Positions 11,502-38,629 of a DNA stretch of 64,000 nt are shown here, one piece after another (within the stretch, counting starts at the first letter, position 1; the number at the start of each line of letters is the position of its first letter). The notes under the pieces are model-generated. The model did no database searches. It was not told where the DNA came from and saw nothing but the letters and a program-made list of their open reading frames with translations. This DNA comes from a virus: positions 5,121-69,120 of IMG/VR virus record IMGVR_UViG_2866807700_000004; one strand, given 5' to 3'. A program made the position numbers and the translations under genes.

Positions 11502-11746
11502 CCTCCGTCCTGACCGTCCGCGTAGGCGGCTCCGTCGCAGGCTCATGCGGCCGCGCCTGCTACGACGCTGAGCACGAGCCCTGCCGGTGCGTGTGCTGTG
11601 GCACGAACCACCGCGCCGGGTTCGAGCAGGCGGTTCGCAACGCGCGGGACATGGCCGCGGAATGGGTCGCGCGGGCCCGTGCGGACGGTCAGGACATCGA
11701 CACCTACGAGCTGGGCCTGGACGTGGTCCAGCACGCCCTTTTCTGA
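11498..11746 (+). CDS. small Cys-rich protein
   Basis: C-x3-C...CRCVCCG.NH. Confidence 0.65.
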   Translation: MTSVLTVRVGGSVAGSCGRACYDAEHEPCRCVCCGTNHRAGFEQAVRNARDMAAEWVARARADGQDIDTYELGLDVVQHALF

Positions 11747-13535: not shown

Positions 13536-15156
13536 TCGGGATCGCAGGGTTCACCGGCGTCACATGGCGGGATGCGGCCGTGCAGGCGCGGCATGGCGAG
13601 GCCGCGCTGTGGAAGGCCGCGCAGGCGGTGACCAGCCAGCTGGCTGGTCGGATCGGCGAGCGTGCCGCGGTGGCGTGGGTCCACACTGCCGCCGTCGTCG
13701 ACCACGCTGGCCGCTATGGGCTCATCTCGGCCGAGAACCTCGACGATTCTGCTGCGATCCGGAAACAGGCTGAGCAGCTCGCCTCGTGCAACCCGGCGCT
13801 CGCCGGCTTCGCTGACCCTGCTGCGAACCCGATGTGGGACGCCGACCCTGGCGACGCGGCGGCCGACATCGCGGCCCTGTACGCCGAGCACACGACCGTG
13901 GACCTGCCGGGCGTCCCGGACGGGTACCGCATCGGTGACCTCTACCAGCAGCTCAGCGAAGAGGCGCGTAAGGGACGCGCGCTGTGCCAGACCCCGCCAT
14001 GGGTCACCGACCTGCTCCTGTCCCTGTCCCTCGACCATGCCGCCGACGAAGCCGGATGGGATGGACTGCGCTCGCTGAAGGTCATCGACCCGGCGTGCGG
14101 GACCGGGCACGTCCTAGTCGAGACTTTCCTGCGGCTGGAAGCGTGGCAGTGGCTGCACCCAGGGGCACCCCGCGTGCGCGGTGCCCTAGTGCCGGACGTG
14201 CTGGCGCAGGTCCACGGATGCGACCTGGACCCGTACGCGGCGCTGATCGCCCGGTACCGGCTGTGCGCCTTGGCCGCCGCGATGAGCGGCACCGACCTTG
14301 CCGGGCTACCCGCGGATCTGCCGGTGCAGGTGGCCACCGCAGATTCCCTGCTCGCCGACGATGAGCCATTGCTGGCGCGCGGTGCCTACGACGTGGTGGT
14401 GATGAACCCGCCCTACATCACCCCGAAGGACGCCCTGGCCCGGGACGCGGTCCGCGCCCGGTACCCGGACGTGTGCCACCGAAAGTACGCACTCTCACTG
14501 CCGTTCCACGCGCTGGCCAATGACCTGCTCAAGCCGGGAGGCTGGTGCGCGCAGCTCACCGCGAACAGCTTCATGAAACGAGAGTTCGGCAAGCCGTACG
14601 TCGAGAAGTACCTGTCAGGGCTGGACCTGCATTGGGTGATCGACACCTCCGGCGCCTACTCCCTGGCCACGGCACCCCCACCGTCATCCTCGTCAACCGC
14701 AACCAGCCCCCAACCGCGCCCATGGTGTCGACCGTGCGAGGCGCCCAAGGCGAACCCTCGGTTTCGGAACTCCCGGGCCGCGGCATTGTGTGGACACAGC
14801 TCCGCCACGCCGTCCGCGAACGCGACCAAGCCGCCCGCCTCGACGCGCTCCTGGACCGCAGCGACAGCCAGGAGCTGCACGCCGCGTCCGAGGAACCACC
14901 CCCGGTGCCGGTACCTGATGGAGACCGGCCGTCAGCGCAGGGCGCGCCCACTCCGAAGCGGAGACGTGCGGCACCGTCCGCAGTTGGCCAGCTCGATCTG
15001 CTCATCGAGGTGGCGGAAGAGGGAGCGGGCACGCAGCAGGCCCGGGTGGCGCAACGGCGACGGAGCCGCCTTAAAGGCGGCATCTCTGCGGGTTCGAATC
15101 CCGCCCCGGGCACCTGGCGGCAGGCCAAGCAGGCGAGCGACCGGGGGCCGAAATGA
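13532..15156 (+). CDS. PglX (BREX type 2)-like N6-adenine DNA methyltransferase, frameshifted at ~14660
   Basis: Motif I IDPACGTGH, motif IV NPPY, and PglX-type blocks GDLYQQLSEEARK, TANSFMKREFG, VIDTSGAY|PGHGTPTVIL split between two frames; the corrected frame stops at 15156, overlapping the next ATG. Confidence 0.85.
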
Positions 15157-15539
15157 CCCGCACTGAGGACCTGAGTGCGGCGTTCGCCGACGGGCCCGCC
15201 CTCCACGCGGGCTTGGACGAGAAGCTCACCGCCGCGCTCCGGGCGGCTGTGCCGCTGCGGATGCTGGAGATCCGCGGCTGGACGGATCGGCAGCGCGCGA
15301 ACGACGCCGCGTGGGTCCAGGAGCTGATGCGCGGCGGCGCGGCTGCGGACGAGCTGCTGTACGGCGTGAAGGGCGGCCGGCCCGCTGCAGCGTTTGGTGC
15401 CTTGGTTCGCGGCCTGGCGGTCCTGGCGTACGTGGAGGGCGGCGTGGAGCTCGCCGGGCTGCACTGGTGCGCCGAGCCGCATATCGAGTGCCCGAGCAGG
15501 CCCCCGTGGACGCATTTGGAGGAGGCCGTGCCGGGGTGA
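15153..15539 (+). CDS. hypothetical protein
   Basis: ATGA overlap; GC3 bias. Confidence 0.6.
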   Translation: MTRTEDLSAAFADGPALHAGLDEKLTAALRAAVPLRMLEIRGWTDRQRANDAAWVQELMRGGAAADELLYGVKGGRPAAAFGALVRGLAVLAYVEGGVELAGLHWCAEPHIECPSRPPWTHLEEAVPG

Positions 15540-19047: not shown

Positions 19048-19353
19048 ATGAGCGACCTCACGATCCCACCCTCAGCGGCAGCGCTGGACGACCGCGCCGA
19101 CGTCGGCGGTGGCCTGTGCCCGCTCTGCAAGGTGTGCGCCGACCACCAGATCTCGCACACCTGCATCGTCCAGCCCGGCCCCCTCAGCGACGAGATCTTC
19201 AGCCACGTGCCCCACAGCGAGTTCCAGCCGCTCCACGCGCGCCTCGCAGCACACCCGGCTCGGCCGCTGGACGAGAACGGCGAACGCCGCGGCGTCGACC
19301 GCACCTGGTGCGTATGTGGCTGCACCACCGCCCGGAAGGAGCTCGACCGATGA
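19048..19353 (+). CDS. Cys/His hypothetical protein
   Basis: AGGAGA RBS; CPLC..C.DH...CVCGC. Confidence 0.6.
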   Translation: MSDLTIPPSAAALDDRADVGGGLCPLCKVCADHQISHTCIVQPGPLSDEIFSHVPHSEFQPLHARLAAHPARPLDENGERRGVDRTWCVCGCTTARKELDR

Positions 19354-19547
19354 GAGACCAGACAGGCGTCTGGGTTGCCAGATACGCCGACGGCTCGTCG
19401 ATCTGCCCGTTCGAGGAAGAGATCGACGCGCTCCGCCACGCGGTCGACAACCAGATGGATGTGACGTTCGTGCCCTGGGGCGAGGACGCACGCACCTACC
19501 GGCAGCCGCCCGAGCGGCCCAAGCAGCCCGCAGTGAGGGCGACCTGA
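19350..19547 (+). CDS. small hypothetical protein
   Basis: ATGA and TGATG overlaps. Confidence 0.6.
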   Translation: MRDQTGVWVARYADGSSICPFEEEIDALRHAVDNQMDVTFVPWGEDARTYRQPPERPKQPAVRAT

Positions 19548-20951
19548 TGGCCGCCCAACCCGCAAACGTGCTCCTGGCCGGCATCGTCGGATCCACCGCC
19601 TACGGTCTCGCCGGGCCCGGCTCCGACATCGACAGGCTCGGCGTGTACGCCGCCCCAACGACCGCGTTCCACGGCCTTCACCCGCCGACCGGCCGCGACG
19701 CCACCACGGTCACAACCAAGCCCGACGTGACCTTTCACGAGGCCGGGAAGTGCGCCGCGCTTTGCCTCGGGATGAACCCAACCGTCACGGAACTGATCTG
19801 GCTCCCGGACGGCCTGTACGAGACCCGCACTGCCCTCGGCGAGCAGCTCATCAGCATCCGGACCGCGTTCCTGTCCGCACGCCGGGTCAAAGACGCCTAC
19901 CTCGGCTACGCGGTCTCCCAGTTCAAACGGCTGGAGACCCGCGGCGACGGCTCCTTCAGCGCGGACACCCGCAAACGTACGGCCAAGCACGCCCGCCACC
20001 TCGCCCGGCTCGTCCACCAGGGGGGGCCTCCAGCTGTACCGCACCGGCCACCTTGACGTCCGCCTCGCCGACCCGCAGTGGTACCTGGACTTCGGTGAGC
20101 GCGTCGCCGGCGGAGACCTTGAGGAAGCGCGCTTCGTCCTGTCCGAGGCCGAGGTCGACTTTGCCGCCGCGCGCACACCTTTGCCTGACGAGCCCGACCG
20201 CGCCCGCGTCGAGGAATGGCTCCACTCCGTCCGCGCCGCCCATCTACCCGACCAGGCCAGGCCCTGCCCGCACGCGGCCGAGGCCGCCCGCCTCCACGAA
20301 GGCGAAGACCCCACACCCCGCGACCCGGGCTGCGAGCCGACGCCTGGGCAATGGCTGCACCGGTTCAACAGCGCGCCCCCGCAGCAGCGGCTCACCTGGG
20401 CGGAAGACATCCTGCGGCACGCGCGCGACAGCTCCCGGTGCCGGTTCGAGATGCGCCACGAAGACCAGATCAGCGAGCTAAGCGACCACGTAGAGGAACT
20501 CCAGCACCGCCCGGCCCCGGCTGACGCCGCCCTGTTCCTGGTGGACCTGGACGGCACCATGGCGCTCCGCCAGGACACCGACGACGTCCGCTCCCCATAC
20601 GACTGGGACCGCGTTGGCGAGGACGTCCCGCACACCCCGATCGTCACCGTCGTCCGCGCGCTCGATACCGCAGGGCACCGGATCATCTACCTGTCCGGCC
20701 GCTCGGAGGAGTGTCGCGCCGCGACCGGTGTGTGGATCGCCGCGCACATCGGCGTGTCAGGGGAGGCGCTGCTGATGCGCCCGGCCGGTGACCACCGCCC
20801 CGACCACGTGGTCAAGCGGGCGCTGTACGAGCGGTGGGTCGCGCCGGTCGGGCCCGTCACCGCCGTCCTCGACGACCGCGCCTCCGTCATCCGGATGTGG
20901 CGCGAAGACCTCGGCCTCACCGTCCTCCAAGTCGCTGAAGGGGACTTCTGA
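19547..20951 (+). CDS. RlaP/YcgL-like (PF10127-type) nucleotidyltransferase fused to a T4-PNK-type HAD 3'-phosphatase; frameshifted at G7 tract 20020-20026
   Basis: Pol-beta motif GSTAYG...SDID; one G fewer gives an open frame HQGGLQLYRTG...LPDEPDRARVEEWLHSVR, then the HAD motifs VDLDGT, LSGR, K, LDDR. Confidence 0.8.
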
Positions 20952-20953
20952 CC

Positions 20954-21370
20954 ATGTCCAGTGACCGGCAGCAGCTGCAGGACGCCGCGATGGCTGCCTT
21001 GGACACCATGCGCGCCGGCGACCGCGCCGCCACCGACCGCGCCCTCAACCAGCTCCTCGACGAGCACGGCCCCGCCGCCATCCCGATCGCGCTGATGCAC
21101 TGGTGCGACGCCGCGCTCGCGCCCATCATGCCTCCCGGGGGCGGGCCGGTTCGGCTGTCGTGGATGGACACCGTCACCGGCCGCGTCCAGGCCGGTGACA
21201 TTGGCGTGCCCGTCACCGAGCAGTGGGCCTGTCGACTCCTGGCCGCCCGGGCGAACGGCGACCGCGACATGTTCCTCGACCTCGTGAAGGCCGTGCCCGA
21301 CGAGGCGATCAACGCGCACATCGGCGCGATGGTCCAGATGGCCGCGTGCATCATCCAGGAGGCGCCATGA
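20954..21370 (+). CDS. hypothetical protein
   Basis: Clean ORF in the operon; stop overlaps the next ATG. Confidence 0.65.
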   Translation: MSSDRQQLQDAAMAALDTMRAGDRAATDRALNQLLDEHGPAAIPIALMHWCDAALAPIMPPGGGPVRLSWMDTVTGRVQAGDIGVPVTEQWACRLLAARANGDRDMFLDLVKAVPDEAINAHIGAMVQMAACIIQEAP

Positions 21371-21639
21371 CGCCCTCGGACTACTGGAACCTGGCGGACC
21401 GCTGGATCCTCGACGACCTCAACCGGGCTCTCGAAGACATGTGCCTCGTGTGCATGGGGCGGGGCTGTATCAACTGCCTGCCCGATCGGAGCCCCTTCTC
21501 AGCTGCGAACGCCGCAGAAGACTGCGAACCCGCTGATCCGGCTGGATGGCTCACCTGCACGGGGCCCGGGATCGACCGGCGCCGGGAGGTTGCAGCGGTG
21601 CAACGCATCCTCGCTGCCGCGCGGAGGGACTCGGACTGA
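21367..21639 (+). CDS. small hypothetical protein (CxxC-x4-CxxC)
   Basis: ATGA overlap; CLVCMGRGCINC. Confidence 0.55.
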   Translation: MTPSDYWNLADRWILDDLNRALEDMCLVCMGRGCINCLPDRSPFSAANAAEDCEPADPAGWLTCTGPGIDRRREVAAVQRILAAARRDSD

Positions 21640-22124
21640 TGCCTCGCTTCCTGATCAAGCCTGACCGGGCCCGGGATCTGTACATCGAGTGGTGGACGAT
21701 CGTCGACGCGCCCGTTGGGCACGGCACCCGCGCCGAGTGGGTAGCCGAAGGGATCGCCCCAGGCGGTCTCGACCGCGCGGACCGGACCGGGACATCCGCG
21801 TGCCCGCCGCTGGCCACCGGTGCGTGGGACGACGAAGAACTGATGGTCGCCGAGCCGCTCGGCCGGCAGCGGCTACTGCCGCGCGACCACCTCATCGACT
21901 ACACCCTCGCCCTGTACCGGCGGGCGGTCACCCAGGCGTACGGCATGACCCGCCCCATCGAGATCGACGACAACTACCCGCCAGCGACTCCGGAACGCCG
22001 GCGGGCTGTTCGTGTCCACTGGCGCCGTTGCCGCCGCTGCAACCCGGCCGGGAACCCGGCGCCGCTGCTCGTCGACGGCGCCGGCTACGCCCGCCGCCGC
22101 AAGGCCAGGAGGCGCCGCCGATGA
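21639..22124 (+). CDS. hypothetical protein
   Basis: TGATG overlap; GC3 bias. Confidence 0.6.
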   Translation: MPRFLIKPDRARDLYIEWWTIVDAPVGHGTRAEWVAEGIAPGGLDRADRTGTSACPPLATGAWDDEELMVAEPLGRQRLLPRDHLIDYTLALYRRAVTQAYGMTRPIEIDDNYPPATPERRRAVRVHWRRCRRCNPAGNPAPLLVDGAGYARRRKARRRRR

Positions 22125-22381
22125 CCTACATCAACCCCGAGGACTACGAGCCCGACGGCGAGGCCCTCGACCGGATGACACGTGCCCAGCTCGCCGAGCT
22201 ACCCGGCCCCGAGCGCACGGTCGCGGACGTCCTCGACGAGTGGAACCGCCGCGAGCACGGCGTCATCTCGTCCTCGCACGGCGCCGGGCTGTTCCTCGAC
22301 CTCCTCGCAGCCGAGGGGTACCGCGTCACTCCGATCGACGCGCCCGACCTGTCCGAACTCCTACCGCCGCCCACCGATTAG
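22121..22381 (+). CDS. hypothetical protein
   Basis: ATGA overlap; acidic product. Confidence 0.6.
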   Translation: MTYINPEDYEPDGEALDRMTRAQLAELPGPERTVADVLDEWNRREHGVISSSHGAGLFLDLLAAEGYRVTPIDAPDLSELLPPPTD

Positions 22382-22396
22382 GAACGGAGCCCCACC

Positions 22397-22984
22397 ATGC
22401 GCAAGATTCCGACGATCTTCGTCCGTGACTGGGAGAACGACCCCTCCCGCGTCACCCGCGAACCGAACCCCGACTGCGCCTGGGTGTTCGCCGGCGAGGG
22501 ACGCGCGACCCGCAAACTCGACGGGACCGCCACCCGTCTCGACGAGGACGGCCGGTGGTGGGGGCGCCGGGAGGTCAAGCCCGGCAAGACCCCGCCGCCC
22601 AACTTCCAGCTCGTTCAGGTCGATGACCGGACCGGGAAGCGCACGGGCTGGCAGCCGATCGAGGACACTCCGTACGCCAAAGTGCACGTCGAGGCGCTGA
22701 ACTTCGCCCTTGAGCATGGACCCCAATTCGAGTTGGGCACGTACGAGTTGTGCGGCCCGAAGATCAACCGTGACCCCGAGCAGTTCGGCGTGCACTTCCT
22801 GATCCGCCACGGCACCCACGAACTCGACGACGTCCCGCTCGACTTCGACGGCCTCGCCGCCTGGCTCCTGGCGCACCCGTACGAGGGCATCGTCTGGCAC
22901 CACCCGGACGGACGGCTCGCGAAGCTGAAGCGGCGTGACATCCCTGCCGAGCTCGCGCCGCATCGGGACACGGAAGCCGGATGA
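22397..22984 (+). CDS. ATP-dependent RNA ligase-like protein (DUF5565/C12orf29-like)
   Basis: Covalent nucleotidyltransferase motifs I KLDGT, III YELCG, IV EGIVW, V AKLK; N-terminal MRKIPTIF; no OB-fold DNA-ligase domain. Confidence 0.75.
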   Translation: MRKIPTIFVRDWENDPSRVTREPNPDCAWVFAGEGRATRKLDGTATRLDEDGRWWGRREVKPGKTPPPNFQLVQVDDRTGKRTGWQPIEDTPYAKVHVEALNFALEHGPQFELGTYELCGPKINRDPEQFGVHFLIRHGTHELDDVPLDFDGLAAWLLAHPYEGIVWHHPDGRLAKLKRRDIPAELAPHRDTEAG

Positions 22985-23542: not shown

Positions 23543-24036
23543 GCGCCGCATCGAACGACCTGCTGGAGTTCCTGCGGGCGCGCGGCTGGCCGAGGACGAG
23601 TGGTGGGCGCGCGAAGCCAGCCGCCTACGCGGCCAGGAAGGACAACCGGCCGGAGACCACTGGCAGTGGATCGACCCCGACACGGAACAGGTCCTCCTTG
23701 TTGACCCCGCCCAGAACGAATGCGTGGGAGAGGAAAGCGAGGGCATCTCGGTGAGCCTTCGGAGCAAGGGAGCACTATCCAACGCAGAACGTGGGAGACC
23801 TGCCCAACTTCGCGATCCACTACGCCGAGGAGGTCCCGACTACGGTCGCAAGTCACATCGTCCGCCATGGCCCGGCGCGCGTGCTGGCCGAAGTCGAGAC
23901 CAAGCGGCGGCTGATTGATCAGCACGTCGGCTACTCCGGCGGAGGCGACGACGATCACTGGCCCGTCCAGACGCTTCGTCTGCTCGCCCTGCCGTACGCA
24001 TCCCACCCCGACTACCGGCCCGAATGGCGTCCATGA
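23539..24036 (+). pseudogene. DUF6221-like protein broken by two frameshifts (~23583 and ~23769)
   Basis: 'DLLEFLRAR|LAEDE' start and 'HIVRHGPARVLAEVETKRRLI...LRLLALPYASHPDYRPEWRP' end lie in three frames. Confidence 0.7.
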
Positions 24037-24058
24037 ACCACCACGAGGGGAGCCGTCA

Positions 24059-25003
24059 TTGACCGAGCCTGCCGCCACCATCCCGACCAGCCCGGCCGAA
24101 GAACTCGCCCAGCTCGTCACCGAGCTCGTCGACGAGGTCACCACCGACGAGGCCGTCACCCGGTACAAGCAGGTCAGCCGCGGCGGCGGCCGCACCGTCA
24201 AGGTCGTCGACCCGGACGCCCGCCACATCACCCGCGACGTCGGCCTCCTCGATCAGCTCCACGCGATCAAGTCGGCGAAGGCGACGGTGCCGGTGCGGAT
24301 CTTCCAGTGGGTGAGCGACCACCAGGGGGAGGACGACCGATGCGAGTCGGCGAGGCAGGGGCTGAAATGCGCGCACGGCCGCTGGAAGCACGTCCGCACC
24401 GAGCAGCGCCCGGCCGGAAGGCTCGGCGTCGTCGCCGGCGGCGCGGCCGTCCCCGGCGGCAGCGCCGGATGGGACAGCGACGGCGCCCTCAACCCGCTCC
24501 GCTCTCTCGGGTTCGAATCCGCCAGCCCGGCCACCAGCGCCGTCGAACTGTACGACGACATCCGCCGCGGCATCGACCGGCTCCGCCGCGACCTCCGCCA
24601 AGCCGCGGGCCGCACCTGGGGCGGCCGCAAAGCGCCCTCAGACGCGCTCCGCGAATGCGTCGGGCTGCTCCTGGACGTCGACGACGACACCGCCCGAGAC
24701 GCCGTCCATCAGGTTCGGGGCTGGGTGTCGACGTGCCGGATCCGCCTCGGCTACGACGCCCCGATCGTCAAACTCCGCGACCTCGTCTGCGGGCAGTGCG
24801 GCGGAACGCTCCACGTCCGCGCCGACGCATCCACCGCCGTCTGGTGCGCCGGCTACCCGACCGCGCACGTGACCGGGCCCGGCTGGCCAGGGGACGAGTG
24901 GGGGCCGGTTGAGTACCCGGCCGAACCGGGATGCGGGGAACGGTACCCCCGCGGCTCCTGGATCAAGCTCCTCGAAGACGTAGCGAAAGCAGGTAACACA
25001 TGA
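24059..25003 (+). CDS. hypothetical protein with C-terminal zinc ribbon; last gene of the early + strand run
   Basis: TTG start after GAGGGGAG; CGQCGG...WC...C motif. Confidence 0.65.
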   Translation: MTEPAATIPTSPAEELAQLVTELVDEVTTDEAVTRYKQVSRGGGRTVKVVDPDARHITRDVGLLDQLHAIKSAKATVPVRIFQWVSDHQGEDDRCESARQGLKCAHGRWKHVRTEQRPAGRLGVVAGGAAVPGGSAGWDSDGALNPLRSLGFESASPATSAVELYDDIRRGIDRLRRDLRQAAGRTWGGRKAPSDALRECVGLLLDVDDDTARDAVHQVRGWVSTCRIRLGYDAPIVKLRDLVCGQCGGTLHVRADASTAVWCAGYPTAHVTGPGWPGDEWGPVEYPAEPGCGERYPRGSWIKLLEDVAKAGNT

Positions 25004-25327
25004 GCCATGCGCCCGGGCCCCAGCTCACGCCCGAGTTCACATCCGAACAACTCGAGCGCGCGACCGCCGCATTCCGACGCATCACTGAAGCGTTCAGTGC
25101 GATCGCGGGCGCGATTGAGCGCGCGGCCGGAGATCGATCTCCGCACTGAGATTCCGGAGCTCGGTCGGTCTTGATGGCTCACCGCTCGACCGTCCGGAGC
25201 GGGACGACGGTGCCGCAGCTCATTCTGAAGACCATCCATCCAGCGCCTAGCTGAGCCGAACACATGACCTTGGGGCTTCCTCAAAGACGCCCTGGCAAGA
25301 GAGACGCCCGGTCAAGCCTTGGGTACG

Positions 25328-26635
25328 TCATGAGCTGCCGCTGGAGCCCTCACCCGAATCGTATTGGAGCACGGGTTTCTCCTTTTCTGCTTTCTGGGGG
25401 TCCGGTGCTTTTCTGTTGATTGAGAGTTCCTTCCAGAGGTCCTCGATGTTTTTGTTCTCGAATGTCACCTGGTAGATCAACTTGGCATACAGAGGGAGAA
25501 ACTTGAACGACCAGCCTCCGGCGCACACCACGGCGTTGCGATGTGGGTCCGGAAGTCGATCCAAGACGGCGTTGTGGTCACCGAAATGCGGATGCACGCA
25601 GTTTCCGGAGTAGACTGGATAAGGTTCGACCCCCAAACAGTGATTTTTGATGAAGTCAACGGTTTTCTTCACATCGTCACGAGCTGGTACGAGGTCCTGT
25701 CTCTCGTCCGTCCGGTTGGGCAACTTCATGGTTTTCTGCGTGGTCGACTCCCAGCCGATTTTAGCGAGGTTGGGCGGTCCCCATGGGACGGGCGGGAAGC
25801 CATAGTACAGTTCGTCTGTTCTTTCACCGAAATAGACCCACATGCCCGGGTAGATGTTGTCGATTTTCGGATCGGTCGCATAGTAGTCGTAAACCATGTC
25901 CCAGACCGCGTAATTGAGTTTGTATTTCTTCTGGGGCTGGATGTTCTTCAGAACCTCGTTGGTATAGGCACCGCACGCGATGACACATTTCTTGGCCGTG
26001 TATGTTCTCGGTGTGCCTGCATCGCTGAATCTGTCTTTATCCTCCTTCACTGTCGCCTTAACGGTCACTGATTCGTTGTCCACTTTAACGGCCGTGACCT
26101 CGGCCTTTTCGATGAGGGTCGCGAGGTTTCGTTGCGCCAGCTTGTAGAAGGTCCGCAGGATCAACGGTACGTTCATCACGCCATTGTCTGGCGAGAAGTA
26201 TCCATCGTACTTGAAGTTCGTGAGATGAAATTCTTTCTCGATCTCCTCTTTGCTTAGTGGTCGGCATGGCCTGCCCAGCTTCGTGAGAGCTTCCTTTACC
26301 TTTTTGTATTCGCCCTGCGCGCCCGCCGTGGATTTATTGCTTCCGAAGTTCAGTTGCCCTGTCATCCAGAGCAGCTTCTCCCCGGAGTCTTTCTCCAGTT
26401 CATGCCACATCTTCAGGGAATTGATGGCTCTTTGGGTGTCCTCCGGTGTGGAATACAGGATTCGGAACATCCGCATGATGTCGCCGGAACTTCCCGAATG
26501 ATGGAAGAACTTCCGTGCCTCCAGGACCAGGACCTTCTTCCCCTTCCTTGCGCTGTGGCATGCGGTGGCGAGCCCGATGGCTCCGCCGCCGACGACGACC
26601 AGGTCGTACTGTGGCCCTTGGGCGTTACTGTTCAT
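25328..26635 (-). CDS. FAD-dependent oxidoreductase, monomeric sarcosine/pipecolate oxidase family
   Basis: Rossmann motif YDLVVVGGGAIG..A, 'GSSG...RMFR', a Cys at the flavinylation-equivalent position (GNCVHP), 'GGWSFKF'; markedly lower GC than the flanks. Confidence 0.85.
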   Translation of the reverse strand: MNSNAQGPQYDLVVVGGGAIGLATACHSARKGKKVLVLEARKFFHHSGSSGDIMRMFRILYSTPEDTQRAINSLKMWHELEKDSGEKLLWMTGQLNFGSNKSTAGAQGEYKKVKEALTKLGRPCRPLSKEEIEKEFHLTNFKYDGYFSPDNGVMNVPLILRTFYKLAQRNLATLIEKAEVTAVKVDNESVTVKATVKEDKDRFSDAGTPRTYTAKKCVIACGAYTNEVLKNIQPQKKYKLNYAVWDMVYDYYATDPKIDNIYPGMWVYFGERTDELYYGFPPVPWGPPNLAKIGWESTTQKTMKLPNRTDERQDLVPARDDVKKTVDFIKNHCLGVEPYPVYSGNCVHPHFGDHNAVLDRLPDPHRNAVVCAGGWSFKFLPLYAKLIYQVTFENKNIEDLWKELSINRKAPDPQKAEKEKPVLQYDSGEGSSGSS

Positions 26636-27428
26636 CTCAGTCTCCCGTCCTTGTCGTGATGGGTGATCGTCGGTCCCGCGGAAGGTGTCCGGCCGATCGA
26701 CACGGCGCCTGATGGCACCGGCCTCCCCCTCTACCTGCCTCACTTTGAACAAACTCCACCTCAACAGCGCGTTCGTACTCCCTTCGGGGCGGAGGTCAAC
26801 GACCAGCAGCGGTTTATCTCCAGGTCCCGATCAGCACTCCACCCTGGGCAAACGGGCACAGAGCCGGCCGTGCGCAATCCGCGTTACGTGGGCGGGTTCT
26901 GGCATTGTGAGGAGGCGAAGCGGTTCGGGGACCTCATGCCTGACTGCGAGCGGATAGTGCTGGCCTGAGCTGCCGGGTACACGGCCCCGGCTGCTTGGGC
27001 CCGTGGGGCTACGAACGAGGCCCACACCGACCAGCACCATCCCTACATGCCCGAGCAACTCGCCGTGCGGGAAGAGGGCCCGCACTTCTACGCCTACCCA
27101 ACCCACGAGGCGTACCTCGAAGGCCGGCACCTGTGGCGCGCGTACCGCCGCAACGAACGCCTGCACGCCGACGAGGCCGCCGTCCGGTGGGCGCTCATCG
27201 ACCAGCGCATCCTTCGCGCGGCGGGCGATTGAATCCACATGCGTCGTGACGAAGCGCGACCTACAGGGGAGGAGGATCCGAGCCTTGATCGGGTCGGGGC
27301 GGCGACGGCGCGAGACGAGGCACCCGGCGGGACGGCGGAAGCCAGCATCGGCCGGATCGCGCAGAGCCTCTTGAAACGGAACCGCTGGCGCTGGTTCCCC
27401 CGGCGCGCTGAGGGCTCGGGTCCCTCGA

Positions 27429-27502
27429 AGTGGAGTGGAGCAGTTCGGTAGCTCGCTGGGGTCATAATCCAGAGGTCGGCGGTTCGAATCCGTCCTCCGC
27501 CA
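27429..27502 (+). tRNA. tRNA-Met(CAT), initiator-like, CCA not encoded
   Basis: Acceptor AGTGGAG/CTCCGCC with a 1:72 mismatch; D arm GAGC/GCTC; anticodon arm CTGGG-GTCATAA-TCCAG; T arm GGCGG-TTCGAAT-CCGTC. Confidence 0.85.
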
Positions 27503-27651
27503 CGGTCCAGGTTGGCGTGAGCCGTACCGCGCTCAGGTTCCGTGACGGACGTGGCCCGAAGCTGAGCGGCAACGGCGTGGTCGAGGGACCGGTCTCCGAC
27601 GCGGCCGTCACGGCCAAGGGGACCGGGACTCTCGGGCAGTTGGCAGGGCGA

Positions 27652-28683
27652 CTAGGACCCCCGGCGCTTCAACTCGTCATCGAAAAACTTGATCACCGAC
27701 GTCACAAGCATCAGGGCGATCACTGCGTTGACTCGCTTGTACTGCTTCCGTGAAACAGCATGGGCGCTCGGGTGGCGGCCGTAGTCCGCTGGTATCGGGT
27801 CGCCCTTGTCCGGCCAGTACTCGGCGTGCGCGCACCAGACCGGCGCGAACGTGAGCGCCGCACGGAAGTGGAAGTCGTCGAAGTCGAAGGTGACTCCGCT
27901 GTCCTTGAACTTGTTCTTTGTGAGTTTCACGCGCACCTCCTTGCTGAAGAACTTCCGCATCACGCTGTCGAGGAGGTTTGCTGCCAGCGCCTGAGCAGCG
28001 TTGGTGTGGCCGCTGCGCAAAGCCTTGACGCAGTCCAGGGCGAACTCACGCTCGTCGGCGAGGCGCTGGTGCGTGACCCCATTGAGGACCGTCTCACAGT
28101 CGGTGACGATGCCCTTCCAACGACTGCTGAGCACCCGGCGTCGATCAGAAGGCGTCTTGGCCGCGAAGATCGCTGCGATGATCTCGGGGCCGGGAACCCG
28201 AAGGACGGGGATGCCCTCGTGCGCGAGCATGTGCTCGAACTCGTCCCAGTCACGGGGCCGCGCCTCACCCCAGTTGGGCGGGAAGAGATTCTGAATGGTC
28301 ACGCTGAGCCGCGACAGGGCGGGCACCAACTGGGACCGCATCACCCTGTCTATGCCCTCGGCGATTTCCCGAAAGGCGGGACTGGGAGTGTTGAACATGC
28401 TTCGAGGGATGGGCACCTTAAAAATCGAATTCAAGCGCTCGGCCGTGGCGCGGAGGCGGAGGATCTCCGGCGACACCTGCGTTTTGAAGTGCGGGACCTT
28501 GATGAGGTTCAGATTTCGCTGCCACAAAGGGCTCAAGAACTGGTTCAGAGGCTGCGCGCGTCGCCGCTGCATCCCCGTGAACGCTTCGCTCAGCGGACGT
28601 CCCCGCCGGGCCGACCCGGCAGCAGACTCCTCGTCGGCGCCTGACTCGTTCTCGGGGGTGTCGGTGTCCTCGGGGGTGCTCAC
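27652..28683 (-). CDS. antisense moron with C-terminal HEPN-like RxxxxH motif
   Basis: Lower-GC ORF; 'GRHPSAHAV' near the C-terminus followed by a helical tail. Confidence 0.65.
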   Translation of the reverse strand: MSTPEDTDTPENESGADEESAAGSARRGRPLSEAFTGMQRRRAQPLNQFLSPLWQRNLNLIKVPHFKTQVSPEILRLRATAERLNSIFKVPIPRSMFNTPSPAFREIAEGIDRVMRSQLVPALSRLSVTIQNLFPPNWGEARPRDWDEFEHMLAHEGIPVLRVPGPEIIAAIFAAKTPSDRRRVLSSRWKGIVTDCETVLNGVTHQRLADEREFALDCVKALRSGHTNAAQALAANLLDSVMRKFFSKEVRVKLTKNKFKDSGVTFDFDDFHFRAALTFAPVWCAHAEYWPDKGDPIPADYGRHPSAHAVSRKQYKRVNAVIALMLVTSVIKFFDDELKRRGS

Positions 28684-28780
28684 GTCGTCATTGTGAGCCT
28701 TGCTCCGTCTGCTGGCGACTCGATTGTTTGCTTTCGCGTGACCGAACGTGGCGGGCGTGGCCAGGTGGCACCAGTAGGCC

Positions 28781-29707
28781 ATGAGCCGCGTCTACTTCCA
28801 CTCACCGTCCGGCACCGCCGAACTGGCGCCGAACACGCCCACGCTAGCGTGATCGTCCGGCGCATCGCCGCCGGGGCCGTGGACGCGTTCCACCACCATG
28901 AGCGGCTCCGCGAGCTGCTGAATCCCGCGCATGACATGGCTCGTGCGGACACCTCCGGCGAGATGATCCGGTGGGCGTTCTGGTTCGACAGGTCTCTCAC
29001 TGTCAGCGATGGGTCCTTGCCCCTGCTCGCCTACCAGGGGCACCCGATCGACGCGTTCTCCCTCGTTCTCAACACGGCGATCGCCGTCGGCGGTGACGCG
29101 GTGAAGCTCCTGGCCCGGCTCCATGGCCAGTGCGAGCTTCACGGCTACGTGGAGGGCCCGAACCGCGCCCTGGCTCGCCGACATCATCGACCAGGGACTG
29201 GACGACGGCGTCATGCGCCGCTCCCTGCGGTACCAGCCGCACCCCGACATCCCGCAGGAGGAGTGGCCGACCCGGGACCTTGGCTGGGACGACGTCACTG
29301 CGTTCCTCCGCGCCCGCGACGACGAACCCGTCGTCATGTCCGACAGCACCATGGACGGGTTCCCCAACGAGTTCGTAGCCGAATGGCGGCCACCCGCCGG
29401 TACCGACCTGCGGCCTGACTGGGCGGCCGAGGCTCCAGAGGAGTGGACGGCTCTCGATGAGACCGAGCGCGCCGATTGGAAACAGACGCGTGTTGGTGAT
29501 CTCTGGGCTGAGCTACCCGAGTCCGAACGGTGGACTCTCGCCATGGCCGGGCTCCGGCTCCGAAGCGAGCGCGGAGCGCTGCTTGAGCTGACCCCGGACG
29601 GCTGGGCCGACTACAGGTTCGGGCACAGCCTGACCGCGTTCGACCTGTACGCCGACGACTACCGAGCCAAGATCGAGGAAGCCCTTGGTGTCGCCTCTGC
29701 TCCCTGA
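28781..29707 (+). CDS. hypothetical protein, frameshifted at 29168-29170
   Basis: 'LHGYVEGPNRA|WLADII' becomes continuous when one C is removed. Confidence 0.6.
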
Positions 29708-29746
29708 CCGGGCTTCCTCGGCGTCAACTCTCAGGCGTCAGCCCTA

Positions 29747-30103
29747 TTAACCGGGCTCAGGCTTGTACTTGGACCTACGCTCGGGTGACCTCTCGCGCTG
29801 CGTGTTCGGATCCGCGTCCTGGCCGCAGGCCCGGAGAATCAGCGTGACGAGCTGTGGGTCATATACCGGCTGGATGAGCCGGGCGCCCTTGGTGTAGGTG
29901 TTCGGGGGCCTGAAGCCCGCCCGTGCGATCAGCGCCCGGACCATGTCCACGTCGGAGGGCCGCAGCCGAAACCGTAGCTCGAACCCCTTCTTGTACGTCT
30001 CCCAGCCTTCGTCACGCTGCCGCTCCACGACCGGGCGCCGGACATGCCCAAACATCGAGAAATACAAGCCGAGGGTCACAACAGCGGACTCATGCGCCTC
30101 CAC
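29747..30103 (-). CDS. hypothetical protein
   Basis: Globular-looking ORF downstream of the ClpX zinc-finger gene on the same strand. Confidence 0.55.
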   Translation of the reverse strand: MEAHESAVVTLGLYFSMFGHVRRPVVERQRDEGWETYKKGFELRFRLRPSDVDMVRALIARAGFRPPNTYTKGARLIQPVYDPQLVTLILRACGQDADPNTQRERSPERRSKYKPEPG

Positions 30104-30163
30104 GAGACGAACGCTACGTCGCGCGCGTTGAGTTCGACCAGTTCAGCCAGCAGGAGACCCGCG

Positions 30164-30634
30164 TCATCCCCCGCCTGAAGGGCCGGGGACCCCTCCTATC
30201 ACGTTCTCCTCGTAGAGGATCTCCAGGCAGAGATCGATGCACTCGAGGCAGATCGTGACGTCGGGAGCGGCGGCAGGGCGCAACAACATGCGGAACTTCT
30301 TGCTGCAGAAGCTGCACCTCTCGGCGTCCTCCTCTGCCTTTGCTAGCAACTCGCCGAGCTGTTCTGCGAGACGCTTTAGTTGCCCGTACTCCTCGGTGGT
30401 CGAGTCCCGCAACAGCGTCGTGCGGCTGTTGGAAGCTTGCCCTTCGCCTGCTGCCGAGGTGCCGAGCACGACGCATTCGTTGCAGACGTGGAGGCCCCGC
30501 GGCCCCGCAATCATCTTCTTGACGTCGCCGGCGTCGGCGCCGCAGAACGAGCATCGGACCTCGTGCAAGTCGGCAGATGACCGCTCGGTTTGTTGCGTGC
30601 CGGAATCGTTGTGTGCCTCTTTGTCACGTGCCAT
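30164..30634 (-). CDS. protein with two ClpX C4-type zinc-binding domains and no ATPase
   Basis: 'RCSFCGADAGDVKKMIAGPRGLHVCNECV' and 'RCSFCSK...VTICLECIDLCLEIL' both match the ClpX N-domain. Confidence 0.8.
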   Translation of the reverse strand: MARDKEAHNDSGTQQTERSSADLHEVRCSFCGADAGDVKKMIAGPRGLHVCNECVVLGTSAAGEGQASNSRTTLLRDSTTEEYGQLKRLAEQLGELLAKAEEDAERCSFCSKKFRMLLRPAAAPDVTICLECIDLCLEILYEENVIGGVPGPSGGG

Positions 30635-30794
30635 CCCGTCAGGTTCGTCCCGTACGGGGCGCGAATCCACTGCGGGGCCGGATCCGGCCGCGCGCAATGG
30701 CCTGACCAAGAGAGGCTCAAACCTCCTGGTGAGGCGCTCTCGGCTGGGCTTGTCCGGGTAGCGCGCGTAGCAACCGGAGTCAGGGGGCGGGGCT

Positions 30795-31802
30795 GTGCAC
30801 ATCCGAAGACCAGTCCCGCCCATGGCCGCGACCAGCATCGAGCACATCCCCGAGGAGTGGGCCTGCTCGGGCGGGTGCCGGTACGAGCCCAAGTTCGACG
30901 GGTTCCGCTGCATCGCCAACGTGAACGATGACGGCGGCGTGCAACTGTGGTCCCGCAACCTCAAGCGCCTCAACGACGCGTTCCCGGAGATCGTGTCCGC
31001 CGTTCACGACACGCTCCCGCCGGCCACCGTGGTGGATGGCGAGATCGTCCGCTGGTCCGCCGACGGCCGCCTCGACTTCTCCGCCCTCCAACGCCGCCAC
31101 GTCGCCGGCCGCCGACGCGCCGACCTCGCGATCACCGAGCCCTGCCACTACGTCGTGTTCGACCTCCTCGAAGCGGCGGGGGAGGACCTGCGGCCTGCGC
31201 CGCTGTCCGAGCGCCGCGCCGAGCTCGAGCAGCTCCTGGGCGACCTTCCCGGCACGTCCCGCGTCGTGCTGTGCCCGCAGCTCCGCGACATCGGCGAGGC
31301 GCGGCTGTGGTTCGAGCTGCTCGTCGCACAGGGCGTGGAGGGCCTGGTGGTGAAGGCCGCGGACGACCCGTACCGGGAGGGACGGCGCGGCTGGTGGAAG
31401 GTCCGGCACCGGGTCACGACCGAAGCGATCGTTGGTGGGGTCACGGGGCCGGTAGATGCGCCATGTACGCTGCTCCTCGGCCGCTACGGGAGCGAAGGCC
31501 GGCTGCGTGTAGTGGCGCGATCGACGCCGCTGGAGGCCCGCGACCGGCTGAGGCTGGGTGCCGTGCTCGTCCCGGCGGGCGATGAGCATCCGTGGCCGGT
31601 GGAGCTACCAGCCGGCTGGGCGGGCGGCCTGCCCGGCGCAGGGGAGCCGATCCAGTACACGAGGGTCGTGCCCGAGATGGTTGTGGAGATCAGCGCCGAC
31701 GCCGCAGTGGAGCGCGGCCGGTGGAGGCATGCGGTGCGGTTCGTGCGGCTACGCGCGGAGTTGGATCCGATGCTTGTTCCCAGAGACCTGGGCCTAGAGT
31801 GA
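30795..31802 (+). CDS. ATP-dependent DNA ligase (compact LigC/LigD-ligase type)
   Basis: PM.A start, motif I EPKFDGFR, III DGEIV, IIIa VVFDLL, IV EGLVVK, V WWKVR; OB-fold tail ending 'RH.VRFVRLR'. Confidence 0.9.
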   Translation: MHIRRPVPPMAATSIEHIPEEWACSGGCRYEPKFDGFRCIANVNDDGGVQLWSRNLKRLNDAFPEIVSAVHDTLPPATVVDGEIVRWSADGRLDFSALQRRHVAGRRRADLAITEPCHYVVFDLLEAAGEDLRPAPLSERRAELEQLLGDLPGTSRVVLCPQLRDIGEARLWFELLVAQGVEGLVVKAADDPYREGRRGWWKVRHRVTTEAIVGGVTGPVDAPCTLLLGRYGSEGRLRVVARSTPLEARDRLRLGAVLVPAGDEHPWPVELPAGWAGGLPGAGEPIQYTRVVPEMVVEISADAAVERGRWRHAVRFVRLRAELDPMLVPRDLGLE

Positions 31803-32133
31803 GGCCCCTCTCCGCTGCTCCTTCCAGTCGAGAATCGTCCCTTCAACTGAGATTCTCACTGATAGGTGCACAGTAGCCCTCTATGGGCTGTTGAGCCTGG
31901 TTGGCCTGCGGGGGAGCGAATACGGCGTCAGGCGTAAGTGGAGCTTACTCTAACCCCTTGAAAATCCGATGCTCAACAGACGGTGGCCGCCGCCAGTTGG
32001 CGTTCGACTCTTGGAAGGCTCCCACCCAAGCGGCGGCTCGCTGGTTCCGTCGGAGAAGCAGCGACGGCCCCCGGTGGTGGTGCACCGAGAGCCGCCGAGA
32101 ACCCGAATCCGCTATCTGGAGGTCGAGCTCTCG

Positions 32134-32319
32134 ATGAGCGTACGTCCACTGCTAGGTGAAGCGCAGCCACCGGACCAGGTGTCCATCAGTGTCGGTGCAC
32201 TGCTGATCGTGTTCATGCTCGTTCTAATCGCCCTTGCGGCCTACCGCGACCCGAAGCTAGCGGCCACGTTTGGCGCAGTGGGTGCGATGGGAGCGCTGTT
32301 GGTCGCTCTGGTCCGTTAA
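32134..32319 (+). CDS. small two-helix membrane protein
   Basis: GGAGG upstream; two hydrophobic segments; lower GC. Confidence 0.55.
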   Translation: MSVRPLLGEAQPPDQVSISVGALLIVFMLVLIALAAYRDPKLAATFGAVGAMGALLVALVR

Positions 32320-32384
32320 CCGTCCTCGCACGCGAAGGGCCCGCCGCGCAAGGAGGCGTCGGCGGGCCCGTGCTGTCCCGATAC

Positions 32385-32536
32385 GTGAGACCCGGTCCAG
32401 TGCACGCGGGTGGCGCCGGAGGCGGTGGTGGAGATCAGCGGCGATGCCGCGGTGGGGCGGGGGACAGTCGCGGCGCGCGGTCAGGTTCGTGCGGCTGCGG
32501 CCTGGTGATGTGCCGATGGGCTTCGGTCTCGGATGA
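32385..32536 (+). pseudogene. degenerate second copy of the DNA ligase C-terminus
   Basis: Across a frameshift reads PVQCTRVAPEAVVEISGDAAV..SRRAVRFVRLR, versus PIQYTRVVPEMVVEISADAAV..WRHAVRFVRLR in 30795-31802. Confidence 0.7.
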
Positions 32537-32540
32537 CCAG

Positions 32541-32783
32541 CTACCCGGCGTCTTGTGAGGCGTCGCCCGGGCCTTGCAGGGCGGCGAGGTCCACGTGTTC
32601 GGCGACTTCTTCGATATCGCGGCAGTAGGCGACGAGGCGGCCGTATCTGGTGATGAGGAACCAGGATTGGCCGGCGCGGGCGTCGCTGTGGCGGGCCTGG
32701 GCGTAGATGAGGTCTGCGTCGTCGAGGGTGACGGCTTCGACGCGCAGGCCGTCCGGGCCGGTCAGGAACCTTGGCTCGGACAT
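32541..32783 (-). CDS. small hypothetical protein
   Basis: MSEPRFLTGPDGLRVEAV...; plausible globular ORF. Confidence 0.5.
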   Translation of the reverse strand: MSEPRFLTGPDGLRVEAVTLDDADLIYAQARHSDARAGQSWFLITRYGRLVAYCRDIEEVAEHVDLAALQGPGDASQDAG

Positions 32784-33012
32784 GGGGGCAGTCTGCGCGT
32801 TCCGATCTCGTCGTTGTAGGCCCAATCGCTGGGCGTGATCGTGCGTGGTCCGGTCGGGGTTGCAGAGGTTGCCGCGCCGGCCCGGTTGACGTAGCTCTCT
32901 GTGACCGGCTGGGGAGGCTGGTTTAGGTGGCCGAAGGCTCGCCCTGCCTGCCTGGCTTGCGCTGGTCTGCTGTTAAGCGGTGAAGACGACTCTCGACCTC
33001 GCTAATACGGTG

Positions 33013-33041
33013 TTGACAAGGTTGATACGTAGAGCTACATT
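33013..33041 (+). promoter_or_regulatory. sigma-70/HrdB-type promoter
   Basis: TTGACA (33013-33018), 17 bp, TACATT (33036-33041) in an AT-rich patch; flanked by a GCTAATAC direct repeat at 33001 and 33042. Confidence 0.75.
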
Positions 33042-33087
33042 GCTAATACCGGAACAACAAGGTTCCGAGGGATCGGGAGGAACCCTG

Positions 33088-34350
33088 ATGACCGTCGACG
33101 TGAACGCGGCGTTCTCCGCCGAGAAGACCGGCCAACTCGACGCACAGCGCGCGGCCCGCGAGCAGCAGGTCCAGGCGAACGCTGACCGGGTCGCGTGGCT
33201 GGACAACGAGGTCGAGCAGGGCCGCATGGTCCTGGACGGCCCCAACACCTACCGCGTCACGCAGGGCTGGGACGCGGGCGAGGTCTTCACCGTCAACCGG
33301 AACCTGGCGGGGCAGATCACCGAGGTCATCGCCGACCACGGCCTCGACACCACCGCCGACGGTGACGCCGCTCTCTACTCCGCCGTCCCCGCCTGGCACG
33401 GCCTCGGCAACGTCATCCCCGGCGGCATCAGCGACATCGCCGAGGTCCTGCGCCTCGGCGGGATCGAGTTCGGCGTGGAGAAGGTCGCCGACCAGTACAC
33501 CTGGAACGGGGAGCTGCGCACCAAGCCGGACTCCTTCATCACGGTCCGCGACGACACCGGCGACGCGCTCGGGAACGTCGGCCGCAAGTACGAGGTCTTC
33601 CAGAACCGGCGGCTGTTCACCTTCCTGGAAGACCTGGTCGCCCGCCACGGCGTGATCTGGCAGTCCGCCGGGCCGCTGCGCGGCGGCCGGAAGGTGTTCG
33701 TGTCCATGCGCGTCCCCAACGACGTGATCGTCGACCCGGGTGGCCTGGACGACACCGTCCAGCTGTTCATCGTCGCGATCAACTCCCACGACGGGCAGTC
33801 CCCGGCTCAGGCCGTCGTCACCCCGTGGCGGCCGGTGTGCGGCAACACCGAGCGGTTCGCCGTCCGCGACGCCGTGTCCCGGTGGAAGATCCGCCACACC
33901 TCCGGCGCGCTCGACCGCCTCCACGAGGCCCGCCGCACCCTCGGCCTGACCGTCGCCTACGCCGAGACGTTCGCGGCCGAAGAGACCGCGCTGGCCCGCA
34001 CGGACCTCGCGATCGCCGAGTTCCACAAGGTGATCTCCGACCTGTGGGACCCGGCCACCGAGGACGACTCCACCCGCACCCGCAACTACGACGAGCGCCG
34101 CCGCGAGTGCCTCGACGCCATGTTCCGCGCCGAGGCCGAGCGCGCCGGACGCACGGCCTACGCGGCGGAGAAGGCGGTCACCGACTACCTCGACCACGTC
34201 GCGCCCAAGCGCCCCGGCCGGACCCTCACCGAGGAACTCGGCCGCGACCGCGCCCTGGACGTCGTCCGCGCCACCGCCCTGGTGGAGGGCACCGACGACG
34301 ACCTGAAGACCACCGCGCACCGGCGGCTGCTGACCCTGACCCGCCGCTGA
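33088..34350 (+). CDS. DUF932 (phage/plasmid TIGR03299-like) protein
   Basis: 'PAWHGLG', 'LGNVGRKYEVFQN', 'SAGPLRGGRKVF', 'NSHDG', 'RPVCGNT', 'IRHT'; GGGAGG RBS. Confidence 0.85.
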   Translation: MTVDVNAAFSAEKTGQLDAQRAAREQQVQANADRVAWLDNEVEQGRMVLDGPNTYRVTQGWDAGEVFTVNRNLAGQITEVIADHGLDTTADGDAALYSAVPAWHGLGNVIPGGISDIAEVLRLGGIEFGVEKVADQYTWNGELRTKPDSFITVRDDTGDALGNVGRKYEVFQNRRLFTFLEDLVARHGVIWQSAGPLRGGRKVFVSMRVPNDVIVDPGGLDDTVQLFIVAINSHDGQSPAQAVVTPWRPVCGNTERFAVRDAVSRWKIRHTSGALDRLHEARRTLGLTVAYAETFAAEETALARTDLAIAEFHKVISDLWDPATEDDSTRTRNYDERRRECLDAMFRAEAERAGRTAYAAEKAVTDYLDHVAPKRPGRTLTEELGRDRALDVVRATALVEGTDDDLKTTAHRRLLTLTRR

Positions 34351-36960: not shown

Positions 36961-37034
36961 TCAATCTGCGAGTGCCGGTCCGGGGGTCTCACTCCCTGTC
37001 CCGACATCACTAACTATACCATAGTTTTGTACCG
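36961..37034 (-). repeat. promoter/leader element copy A (inverted repeat of copy C)
   Basis: 74 bp; its reverse complement matches 38556-38629 with 3 mismatches; contains TGGTATAGT (extended -10). Confidence 0.9.
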
Positions 37035-38396: not shown

Positions 38397-38493
38397 GGTT
38401 CCTCCACTGTTGATTTGTCAATCTGCGAGTGCCGGGGTCCGGGGTCTCACTCCCTCGTCCTGACACTTATAACTATACCATGTTTCTGTACTG
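38395..38493 (-). repeat. promoter/leader element copy B (diverged)
   Basis: Reverse complement: ..GTACAGAAACATGGTATAGTTA..GGGAGTGAGACCCCGGACC..CTCGCAGATTGACAAATCAACAGTGGAGG. Confidence 0.85.
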
Positions 38494-38555: not shown

Positions 38556-38629
38556 CGGTACAGAACTGTGGTATAGTTAGTGATGTCGGGACAGGGAGTG
38601 AGACCCCCGGACCGGCGCTCGCAGATTGA
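38556..38629 (+). repeat. promoter/leader element copy C
   Basis: CGGTACAGAACTGTGGTATAGTTAGTGATGTCGGGACAGGGAGTGAGACCCCCGGACCGGCGCTCGCAGATTGA. Confidence 0.9.

Follow-up and report, generated by a model that had tools for sequence, protein, structure and literature searches.

The stretch of DNA analysed here, called the window below, comprises 64,000 nucleotides and corresponds to positions C55:11264-75263, on one contig of a 9.38-Mb draft genome with roughly 70% GC. The lysogen genome is 98.8% complete and, judging by the names attached to its nearest homologues, the host would be Actinomadura or a neighbouring genus. The window genes are small and nearly all are on the + strand. Among them are a terminase large subunit (40430-41875), 46% identical to Arthrobacter phage terminases, and a 1570-aa ORF of tape-measure size (53437-58149); a CHAP/peptidoglycan-binding endolysin is encoded at the right end of C55 (C55:76295-77002). 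The left end of C55 contains the host genes for a DeoR regulator, an amidohydrolase and a GNAT protein, together with the tRNA-Ala(CGC) gene (C55:4256-4331) and an HTH repressor. We conclude from this gene layout, with its terminase, tape-measure-size ORF, endolysin and host genes at the left end, that the tRNA gene described below sits within a prophage of at least 70 kb that is integrated beside tRNA-Ala(CGC). No direct repeat of this tRNA-Ala of 14 nt or longer was found further along C55, and a megablast of window positions 24000-34000 against phages gave no match.

Inside the prophage lies a gene for an initiator-type tRNA(CAU) without an encoded CCA (27429..27502, + strand). ARAGORN called it in the window as tRNA-Met(CAT) at 27429-27503, and Rfam matched RF00005 at full length over 27429-27502 (+) with 52.0 bits against a gathering score of 29. 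The assignment is further based on the structure, on the comparison with the host tRNAs and on an orthologue in the prophage L230. The original prediction had given the same coordinates, the same arm sequence and an A:C reading of 1:72, and direct reading, ARAGORN and Rfam found all of these to be correct. By direct reading, the acceptor stem is AGTGGAG/CTCCGCC with an unpaired A1xC72, followed by G2:C71, U3.G70 and A6:U67 among its pairs, and the discriminator is A73. The D stem GAGC/GCTC provides A11:U24 and is the same as in the host initiator. The anticodon arm reads CTGGG-GTCATAA-TCCAG with the pairs G29:C41, G30:C40 and G31.U39 and with G32, and the CAU anticodon is placed in a 7-nt loop G-U-C-A-U-A-A that has U33 and A37. 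The predicted G32 and the predicted G:U at the third initiator pair are therefore real.

The position 1:72 has no Watson-Crick pair, as is characteristic of an initiator. The strict set of three G:C pairs (29:41, 30:40, 31:39) is not complete, with 31:39 being G.U; this rule is not absolute for initiator membership since natural GC/GC/gu exceptions exist (PMC5389676). The middle pair G30:C40 with R:Y pairs on either side is present. The formylase determinants G2:C71 and A73 are also present, with U.G instead of C:G at 3:70. When the anticodon hairpin was folded, the canonical register was the minimum-energy structure, with -4.0 kcal/mol compared to -5.9 kcal/mol for the host. A register shifted along the G-run of the anticodon stem was considered and rejected, as it is less stable (-2.2 vs -4.0 kcal/mol). 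No stem pair is broken and U8, G18G19, U33, T54-C56 and A58 are unchanged. The tRNA is structurally maintained and is no pseudo-tRNA.

Two further candidates were tried and discarded. A reading of the tRNA as an attB/attP relic was rejected because the gene is complete and internal to the prophage, the likely att site being the tRNA-Ala(CGC) gene. A second ARAGORN call in the window, tRNA-Leu(TAA) at 15040-15114, is probably false: it has no Rfam match and, with 75 nt, does not have the long variable arm of class II. This call falls inside an Eco57I/N6-type DNA methylase ORF (13532-15166).

The host has a canonical initiator of its own (C383:44967-45041) with C1xU72, three G:C pairs and C32, and an elongator tRNA-Met on contig C363. 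The window tRNA is identical to the initiator at 62 of 74 positions and to the elongator at 46 of 74, and this, together with the initiator hallmarks, bears out the predicted tRNA-fMet-like body. Both initiators have the CAU anticodon, an unpaired 1:72, G2:C71, A73 and A11:U24, and they also share the D arm, the variable loop, G29:C41, G30:C40, a length of 74 nt and the absence of an encoded CCA, which is not encoded in other tRNA genes of the host either. The window tRNA differs in having A1xC72 for C1xU72, U3.G70, A6:U67, another T stem, G32 for C32 and G31.U39 for G31:C39, and it lies on a prophage, whereas the host initiator lies on the chromosome backbone. Ten of the 12 differences fall in stems. 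They comprise three two-sided pair changes (6:67, 50:64 and 51:63) and two pairs that have become G.U (3:70 and 31:39), while 1:72 remains unpaired. All 12 differences leave every stem pair intact, which 12 random substitutions do in 0.1% of 100,000 simulations. The D arm, variable loop and anticodon stem are identical except for C32G and C39U, so that the comparison with the host tRNA-fMet that the original prediction had called for places the differences in the anticodon arm exactly at 32 and 39. A fourth tRNA with a CAT anticodon, which has an unusual D arm, was seen on a 6.7-kb contig of the same genome (C193:553-626). Among the ARAGORN calls of the draft genome, none was recognisable as a canonical tRNA-Ile2(CAT).

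Convergent with the tRNA is the gene for P0004 (27652..28683, - strand), whose 343 aa place it in the P0001 family, a group of uncharacterised actinomycete proteins. It has 141 homologues, mostly in Streptomyces and Actinomadura, none of which has a Pfam family. An R-H-x3-H motif near the C terminus is invariant (R303/H304/H308) in 26 sequences of the family, and the structural model is all-helical with a mean pLDDT of 71.5. Searches of Pfam, PHROGs, PADLOC, a PDB sequence profile and Foldseek pdb returned nothing for this protein, and in an atlas search only its own family was recovered. VIA-align lists HEPN chains with Z scores of 6.4-7.0 (1wol and 2hsb, Z 7.0; AbiV, Z 6.4), which are within the helical-bundle background. 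With Z scores at background level and the other searches empty, an assignment of the protein to HEPN was not upheld. Further downstream, 30164-30973 (-) encodes a protein that has two ClpX-type C4 zinc fingers but lacks an ATPase domain, and its gene overlaps on the opposite strand with that of an ATP-dependent DNA ligase (PF01068, 30795-31802, +); a DUF932 protein (32980-34350) follows after the ligase gene.

On the other side of the tRNA lies an antisense gene for a FAD-dependent oxidoreductase of the DAO family (25328..26764, - strand; PF01266 at 2.9e-34) in a low-GC cassette. The protein is 73% identical to one Actinomadura protein, and the next homologues reach at most 40% and are mostly fungal. 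The close homologue, in Actinomadura sp. KC216 (L228), adjoins a transposase and an integrase fragment. Where the window has the segment 25003-27501, with the DAO gene followed by the tRNA, the sister prophages have four small genes. A capture of the tRNA together with the DAO gene was rejected, since L228 has no tRNA nearby and the homology stops 585 bp before the tRNA; the 584-bp stretch between the DAO homology and the tRNA is unique in the genome.

A set of RNA-repair genes (19109-22984, +) is located 5-8 kb upstream of the tRNA. It encodes an RlaP-family (RNA-ligase-associated Pol-beta) nucleotidyltransferase (19109..20056, +; PF10127 at 2.9e-18, residues 148-301), a protein with a PNKP-type HAD 3'-phosphatase domain (20181..20951, +; PF25109 at 5e-41) and a small RNA ligase of 195 aa that is RLIG1/C12orf29-like (22397..22984, +; phrog_14301 'RNA ligase' at 2.8e-47 and PF17720 at 8.5e-11). 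No polynucleotide kinase domain was seen in this set. RlaP is described as adding nucleotides to damaged RNA 3' ends and helping to restore repaired tRNA (PMC12776372, a preprint). The counterpart in L230 consists of a 669-aa RlaP protein, a YaaC-family protein and a Thg1-like protein.

Related prophages were reached through homologues of the convergent neighbour gene. L222 of Actinomadura bangladeshensis has about 80% nucleotide identity over the structural genes and the RNA ligase and contains no tRNA, L223 of a Spirillospora sp. is a remnant at the same tRNA-Ala/GNAT/amidohydrolase/DeoR site, and L230 of Actinomadura sp. LOL_016 is syntenic with the window from 18 to 41 kb at 68-88% identity and has a tRNA-Met(CAT) whose position and orientation match those of the window tRNA. 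This orthologous tRNA (L230 11266-11339, GCA_048060485.1) is identical to the window tRNA at 69 of 74 positions. The gene of the window is thus inside a phage genome and inherited with the phage, as is expected of a phage-encoded tRNA. Searches for more orthologues gave no further case: the block of tRNA and flank had no match in 103 other species of the genus, and a T-arm/acceptor pattern returned only unrelated tRNAs from viral contigs.

The two orthologues have the A1xC72 acceptor, D arm, variable loop and T loop in common. The L230 tRNA, however, has the canonical arm CTGGG-CTCATAA-CCCAG with C32 and C39, as well as C3:G70, G51:C63 and an encoded CCA. The window tRNA differs from it by the three single substitutions C3U, C32G and C39U and by one compensated pair swap at 51:63. 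In Rfam, the L230 tRNA scores 64.8 bits and the host initiator 65.2 bits, compared to the 52.0 bits of the window tRNA. Since C3, C32 and C39 are common to the L230 tRNA, the host initiator and 58 of 61 sampled genomes of the phylum, U3, G32 and U39 of the window are derived. All three single substitutions occurred on the window lineage and none on that of L230. The window arm is a derived allele with two point substitutions on one branch and no old remodelled design. Of the remodelled anticodon arm in the original prediction, G32 and G31.U39 stand, but they amount to only two point substitutions in one lineage, and the arm of L230 is canonical.

The sequences around the tRNA were compared in the same way. 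The upstream non-coding flank (27275..27428, +), a possible promoter or leader, is 81% identical to L230 over 155 columns, and the tRNA itself 93%; the block of both (27275-27503) is 85.7% identical. Purifying selection on the fold is indicated by the higher conservation of the tRNA and by the compensatory swap at 51:63. The downstream flank (27503..27627, +) is 91% identical to L222 12426-12553, from a prophage without a tRNA there. The homology to L222 resumes exactly at the 3' end of the window tRNA (27501-27627), which marks a mosaic junction, and the L230 sequence downstream, beginning with the encoded CCA, is unrelated to the downstream flank of the window. The window tRNA has therefore had its 3' trailer exchanged directly behind the discriminator, and the CCA that its orthologue encodes has been lost. 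L230 has a TATAGT hexamer (~11500-11507) some 170 nt before its tRNA; it aligns with TACAGG at ~27262-27267 of the window, which may be what is left of a promoter. Neither L230 nor the window showed a -35 element near the hexamer, and promoter and terminator scans called no sigma-70-type promoter or terminator near the tRNA in the window or in L230. An extended -10-like motif, TGGTATAGT, is present elsewhere in three exact copies (37013-37021, 38472-38480 and 38569-38577), with 0.99 matches expected at up to one mismatch. These copies are candidate phage promoters; upstream of the window tRNA the motif is absent.

To see how rare the arm is, we surveyed several collections. The exact arm CTGGGGTCATAATCCAG had one match in 2.9 million viral contigs, which was no tRNA. 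In genome contigs (one genome per species, 185,579 species) it had 62 matches, which is about the number expected by chance, and the only tRNA-Met among them was that of the window. The arm as a 26-mer with flanks had no match in metagenome contigs, and a relaxed G31/G32/U39 pattern had four matches with no tRNA among them. The exact arm is thus a singleton among the tRNAs of the viral, genome and metagenome collections searched, and being a singleton it offers no evidence of conservation. It is unique, yet only two mutations away from the arm of its orthologue.

Among 74 initiator-like tRNAs sampled from IMG/VR, 70 have C32 and four have U32, whereas G32 does not occur; 59 form G:C at 31:39 and the other 15 do not, with G.U in one of these. 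A scan directed at G32 returned nine initiator-like tRNAs from viruses, and these have five different stems. Four of the nine belong to related contigs that keep G32 along with a compensatory 6:67 change, and for this reason G32 is compatible with a maintained tRNA. The G32 pattern was found in none of 400 other genomes of the phylum, whereas the control search for C32 with GGG/CCC was positive in 58 of 61. These genus and phylum tallies, for G32 and for the C32 control, include genomes that are flagged as unpublished (G036, G041 and G087), and none of these three carries a claim by itself. Variants with U39 recur in several high-GC viral contigs. The initiator copies of phages show a variable anticodon loop. 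The A1xC72 acceptor was present in 6 of the 74 IMG/VR tRNAs and also in the Mycobacterium phages Phabba and Myrna; among phage initiator-like tRNAs it is a minority yet established form. Two other IMG/VR contigs, L232 and L234, carry initiator-like tRNAs with strongly altered loops, one with U32 and U38 and one with TTCATTT.

With about even confidence, we favour a working spare initiator that is supplied by the phage and has tolerated some changes. The tRNA would belong to the phage lineage as heritable cargo of an Actinomadura-type prophage family and would most likely act as a spare tRNA-fMet while the phage genes are expressed. We infer its activities from the sequence. It could be charged by the host MetRS through the CAU anticodon and A73. 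The host formylase would formylate it and EF-Tu would reject it, with A1xC72 unpaired above G2:C71. Entry into the 30S P site would then follow through G29:C41 and the essential G30:C40. In E. coli, G30:C40 alone is essential and the flanking pairs add fitness, and some alpha-proteobacteria and mycoplasmas naturally have GC/GC/gu initiators, which are functional (PMC5389676, Shetty et al. 2017). Because the initiator determinants are in place, GC/GC/gu occurs naturally and only G30:C40 is essential, the window tRNA is probably still usable. A counterpoint to the working spare initiator is the replacement of C3:G70 by U3.G70; C3:G70 is a formylase determinant in E. coli (PMC5389676). The 13 Rfam bits that the window tRNA has lost compared to its orthologue also make a functional cost plausible. 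In addition, the tRNA is dispensable for the phage family, since L222 exists without any. The loop positions 32, 33 and 37 modulate the recognition by MetRS in E. coli. Most simply, C32G and C39U would be recent and tolerated substitutions that are near-neutral or mildly costly, and no designed remodelling. That the single substitutions are all on the window lineage could reflect relaxed constraint or selection rather than neutrality. We estimate a chance of ~0.04-0.2 that three substitutions would all be non-disruptive without constraint, and at this value the sequence does not allow selection to be told from drift; drift explains the two arm substitutions as well as selection does.

Decay is the alternative that survives best, although we think it unlikely. 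A resident prophage would no longer need the tRNA, so that damage such as G32, the weaker pairs at 31:39 and 3:70, the missing CCA and the exchanged 3' trailer accumulates and the product is poorly processed, poorly charged or not used. This would account for single substitutions that are confined to the window lineage and for a score 13 bits below both the orthologue and the host gene, but no stem pair is broken, no invariant tertiary nucleotide is changed and the changes at 3:70 and 31:39 both retain pairing as a wobble. GC/GC/gu also functions in nature (PMC5389676), and another phage clade maintains G32; both points speak against decay. The recombination joint at the 3' end, where the encoded CCA was lost, likewise fits with decay, except that the tRNA genes of the host do without an encoded CCA as well. 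The change of the TATAGT hexamer to TACAGG, the foreign low-GC cassette immediately upstream and the complete loss of the tRNA in L222 remain on the side of decay.

A further alternative is that C32G and C39U were selected because an anticodon-loop nuclease of the host, VapC-like or other, no longer recognises or cuts the phage tRNA, which would allow initiation to go on in defended hosts. We hold this to be rather improbable. Enteric VapC cuts tRNA-fMet at A38|C39, according to the statement in PMC4105405 that cites Winther and Gerdes 2011, and an escape of phage tRNAs through changes in the anticodon loop is a published hypothesis (PMC10264068, van den Berg et al. 2023). The two changed positions lie on either side of the loop, and 39 is the nucleotide 3' of the enteric cut as given in PMC4105405; here the original prediction, which had named G32 and the G:U at 31:39, agrees with the host comparison. 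The rest of the anticodon arm and the D arm are the same as in the host tRNA, which is another point for escape. The three single changes C3U, C32G and C39U, on the other hand, are all losses of C, as mutation pressure would also produce. The occurrence of G32 in nine viral initiator-like tRNAs with five stems and in none of the 400 other genomes of the phylum is consistent with escape, and so are the U39 variants of high-GC viral contigs and U38 in Gordonia phage Sixama and Clavibacter phage CN1A, but the window allele is a singleton and the sister prophage L230 keeps the canonical arm. The phage family carries genes for RNA repair (RlaP, the PNKP-type phosphatase and RNA ligase in the window, RlaP and the Thg1-like protein in L230), which also counts in favour of escape. 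Genes with a PIN domain (PF01850) are accessory in the genus, occurring in 9 of 25 congeners, but the 98.8%-complete lysogen genome had no match to PIN (PF01850), PIN_3 (PF13470) or the PrrC/RloC-type ATPase (PF13166). We know of no tRNA-fMet nuclease in this host group. Moreover, phages generally avoid encoding tRNA-fMet where VapC-LT2 acts (PMC10264068).

In its most specific form, escape from a nuclease would mean that C32G and C39U were fixed under an actinomycete nuclease for the initiator arm, that L230 retains the sensitive ancestral state and that G32 is a general phage solution against an undescribed tRNA-fMet nuclease that reads C32; this we regard as quite doubtful. If it were true, G32, found in at least five unrelated lineages of phage initiators, would counter such a C32-reading nuclease.

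That the P0001-family protein is a HEPN-type RNase attacking the initiator tRNA, with the variant tRNA as a resistant copy that shields the lysogen or the phage, is hardly credible: the invariant R-H-x3-H in 26 homologues, the HEPN chains in the VIA-align list and the convergent arrangement with the tRNA in both the window and L230 would suit it, but VIA-align stays within the helical-bundle background, Foldseek pdb, the atlas search, Pfam, PHROGs and PADLOC give no support for HEPN, most members of the family belong to Streptomyces chromosomes and show no linked tRNA, and an immunity pairing of protein and tRNA is unlikely because the partner tRNA in L230 has a canonical arm and L222 has the gene without any tRNA.

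Phage-borne initiator tRNAs were already known. What is added here is a natural pair of orthologues whose essential differences are at positions 3, 32 and 39, together with the host's own initiator. With this pair of alleles, it can be asked directly how changes at the loop flanks affect charging, formylation, use in the P site and sensitivity to toxins. Should the changes prove neutral or harmful, the locus would simply illustrate how accessory cargo of a phage drifts. That G32 recurs in unrelated phage initiator-like tRNAs but was absent from 400 cellular genomes of the phylum hints weakly at a defence that may recognise position 32 of tRNA-fMet.

The window tRNA was finally compared with the initiator tRNAs of the Mycobacterium phages Myrna, Phabba and ScoobyDoobyDoo, the Gordonia phages Sixama and GodonK and the Clavibacter phage CN1A. 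Phabba and Myrna have A1xC72 together with A73, as does the window tRNA. Altered arms are frequent among these actinophage initiators, with CTAGC/GCTAG in Phabba, CCAGG/CCTGG in Myrna and U38 in Sixama and CN1A, whereas G32 together with G31.U39 occurs in the window tRNA and in none of the others. They are located in large tRNA clusters of lytic or temperate phages of 56-165 kb, whereas the window tRNA stands alone. The GC/GC/gu initiators (PMC5389676) resemble the window tRNA in having G.U as the third pair and keeping G29:C41 and G30:C40. They are, however, the sole chromosomal initiators and keep C32, whereas the window tRNA is an accessory phage copy with G32. The escape-variant phage tRNAs (PMC10264068) and the T4 Pnk/Rnl1 repair likewise combine a difference from the host isoacceptor beside the nuclease cut with enzymes for RNA healing and sealing; the repair set consists of Pnk and Rnl1 in T4 and of RlaP, a phosphatase and an RLIG1-like ligase in the phage of the window.
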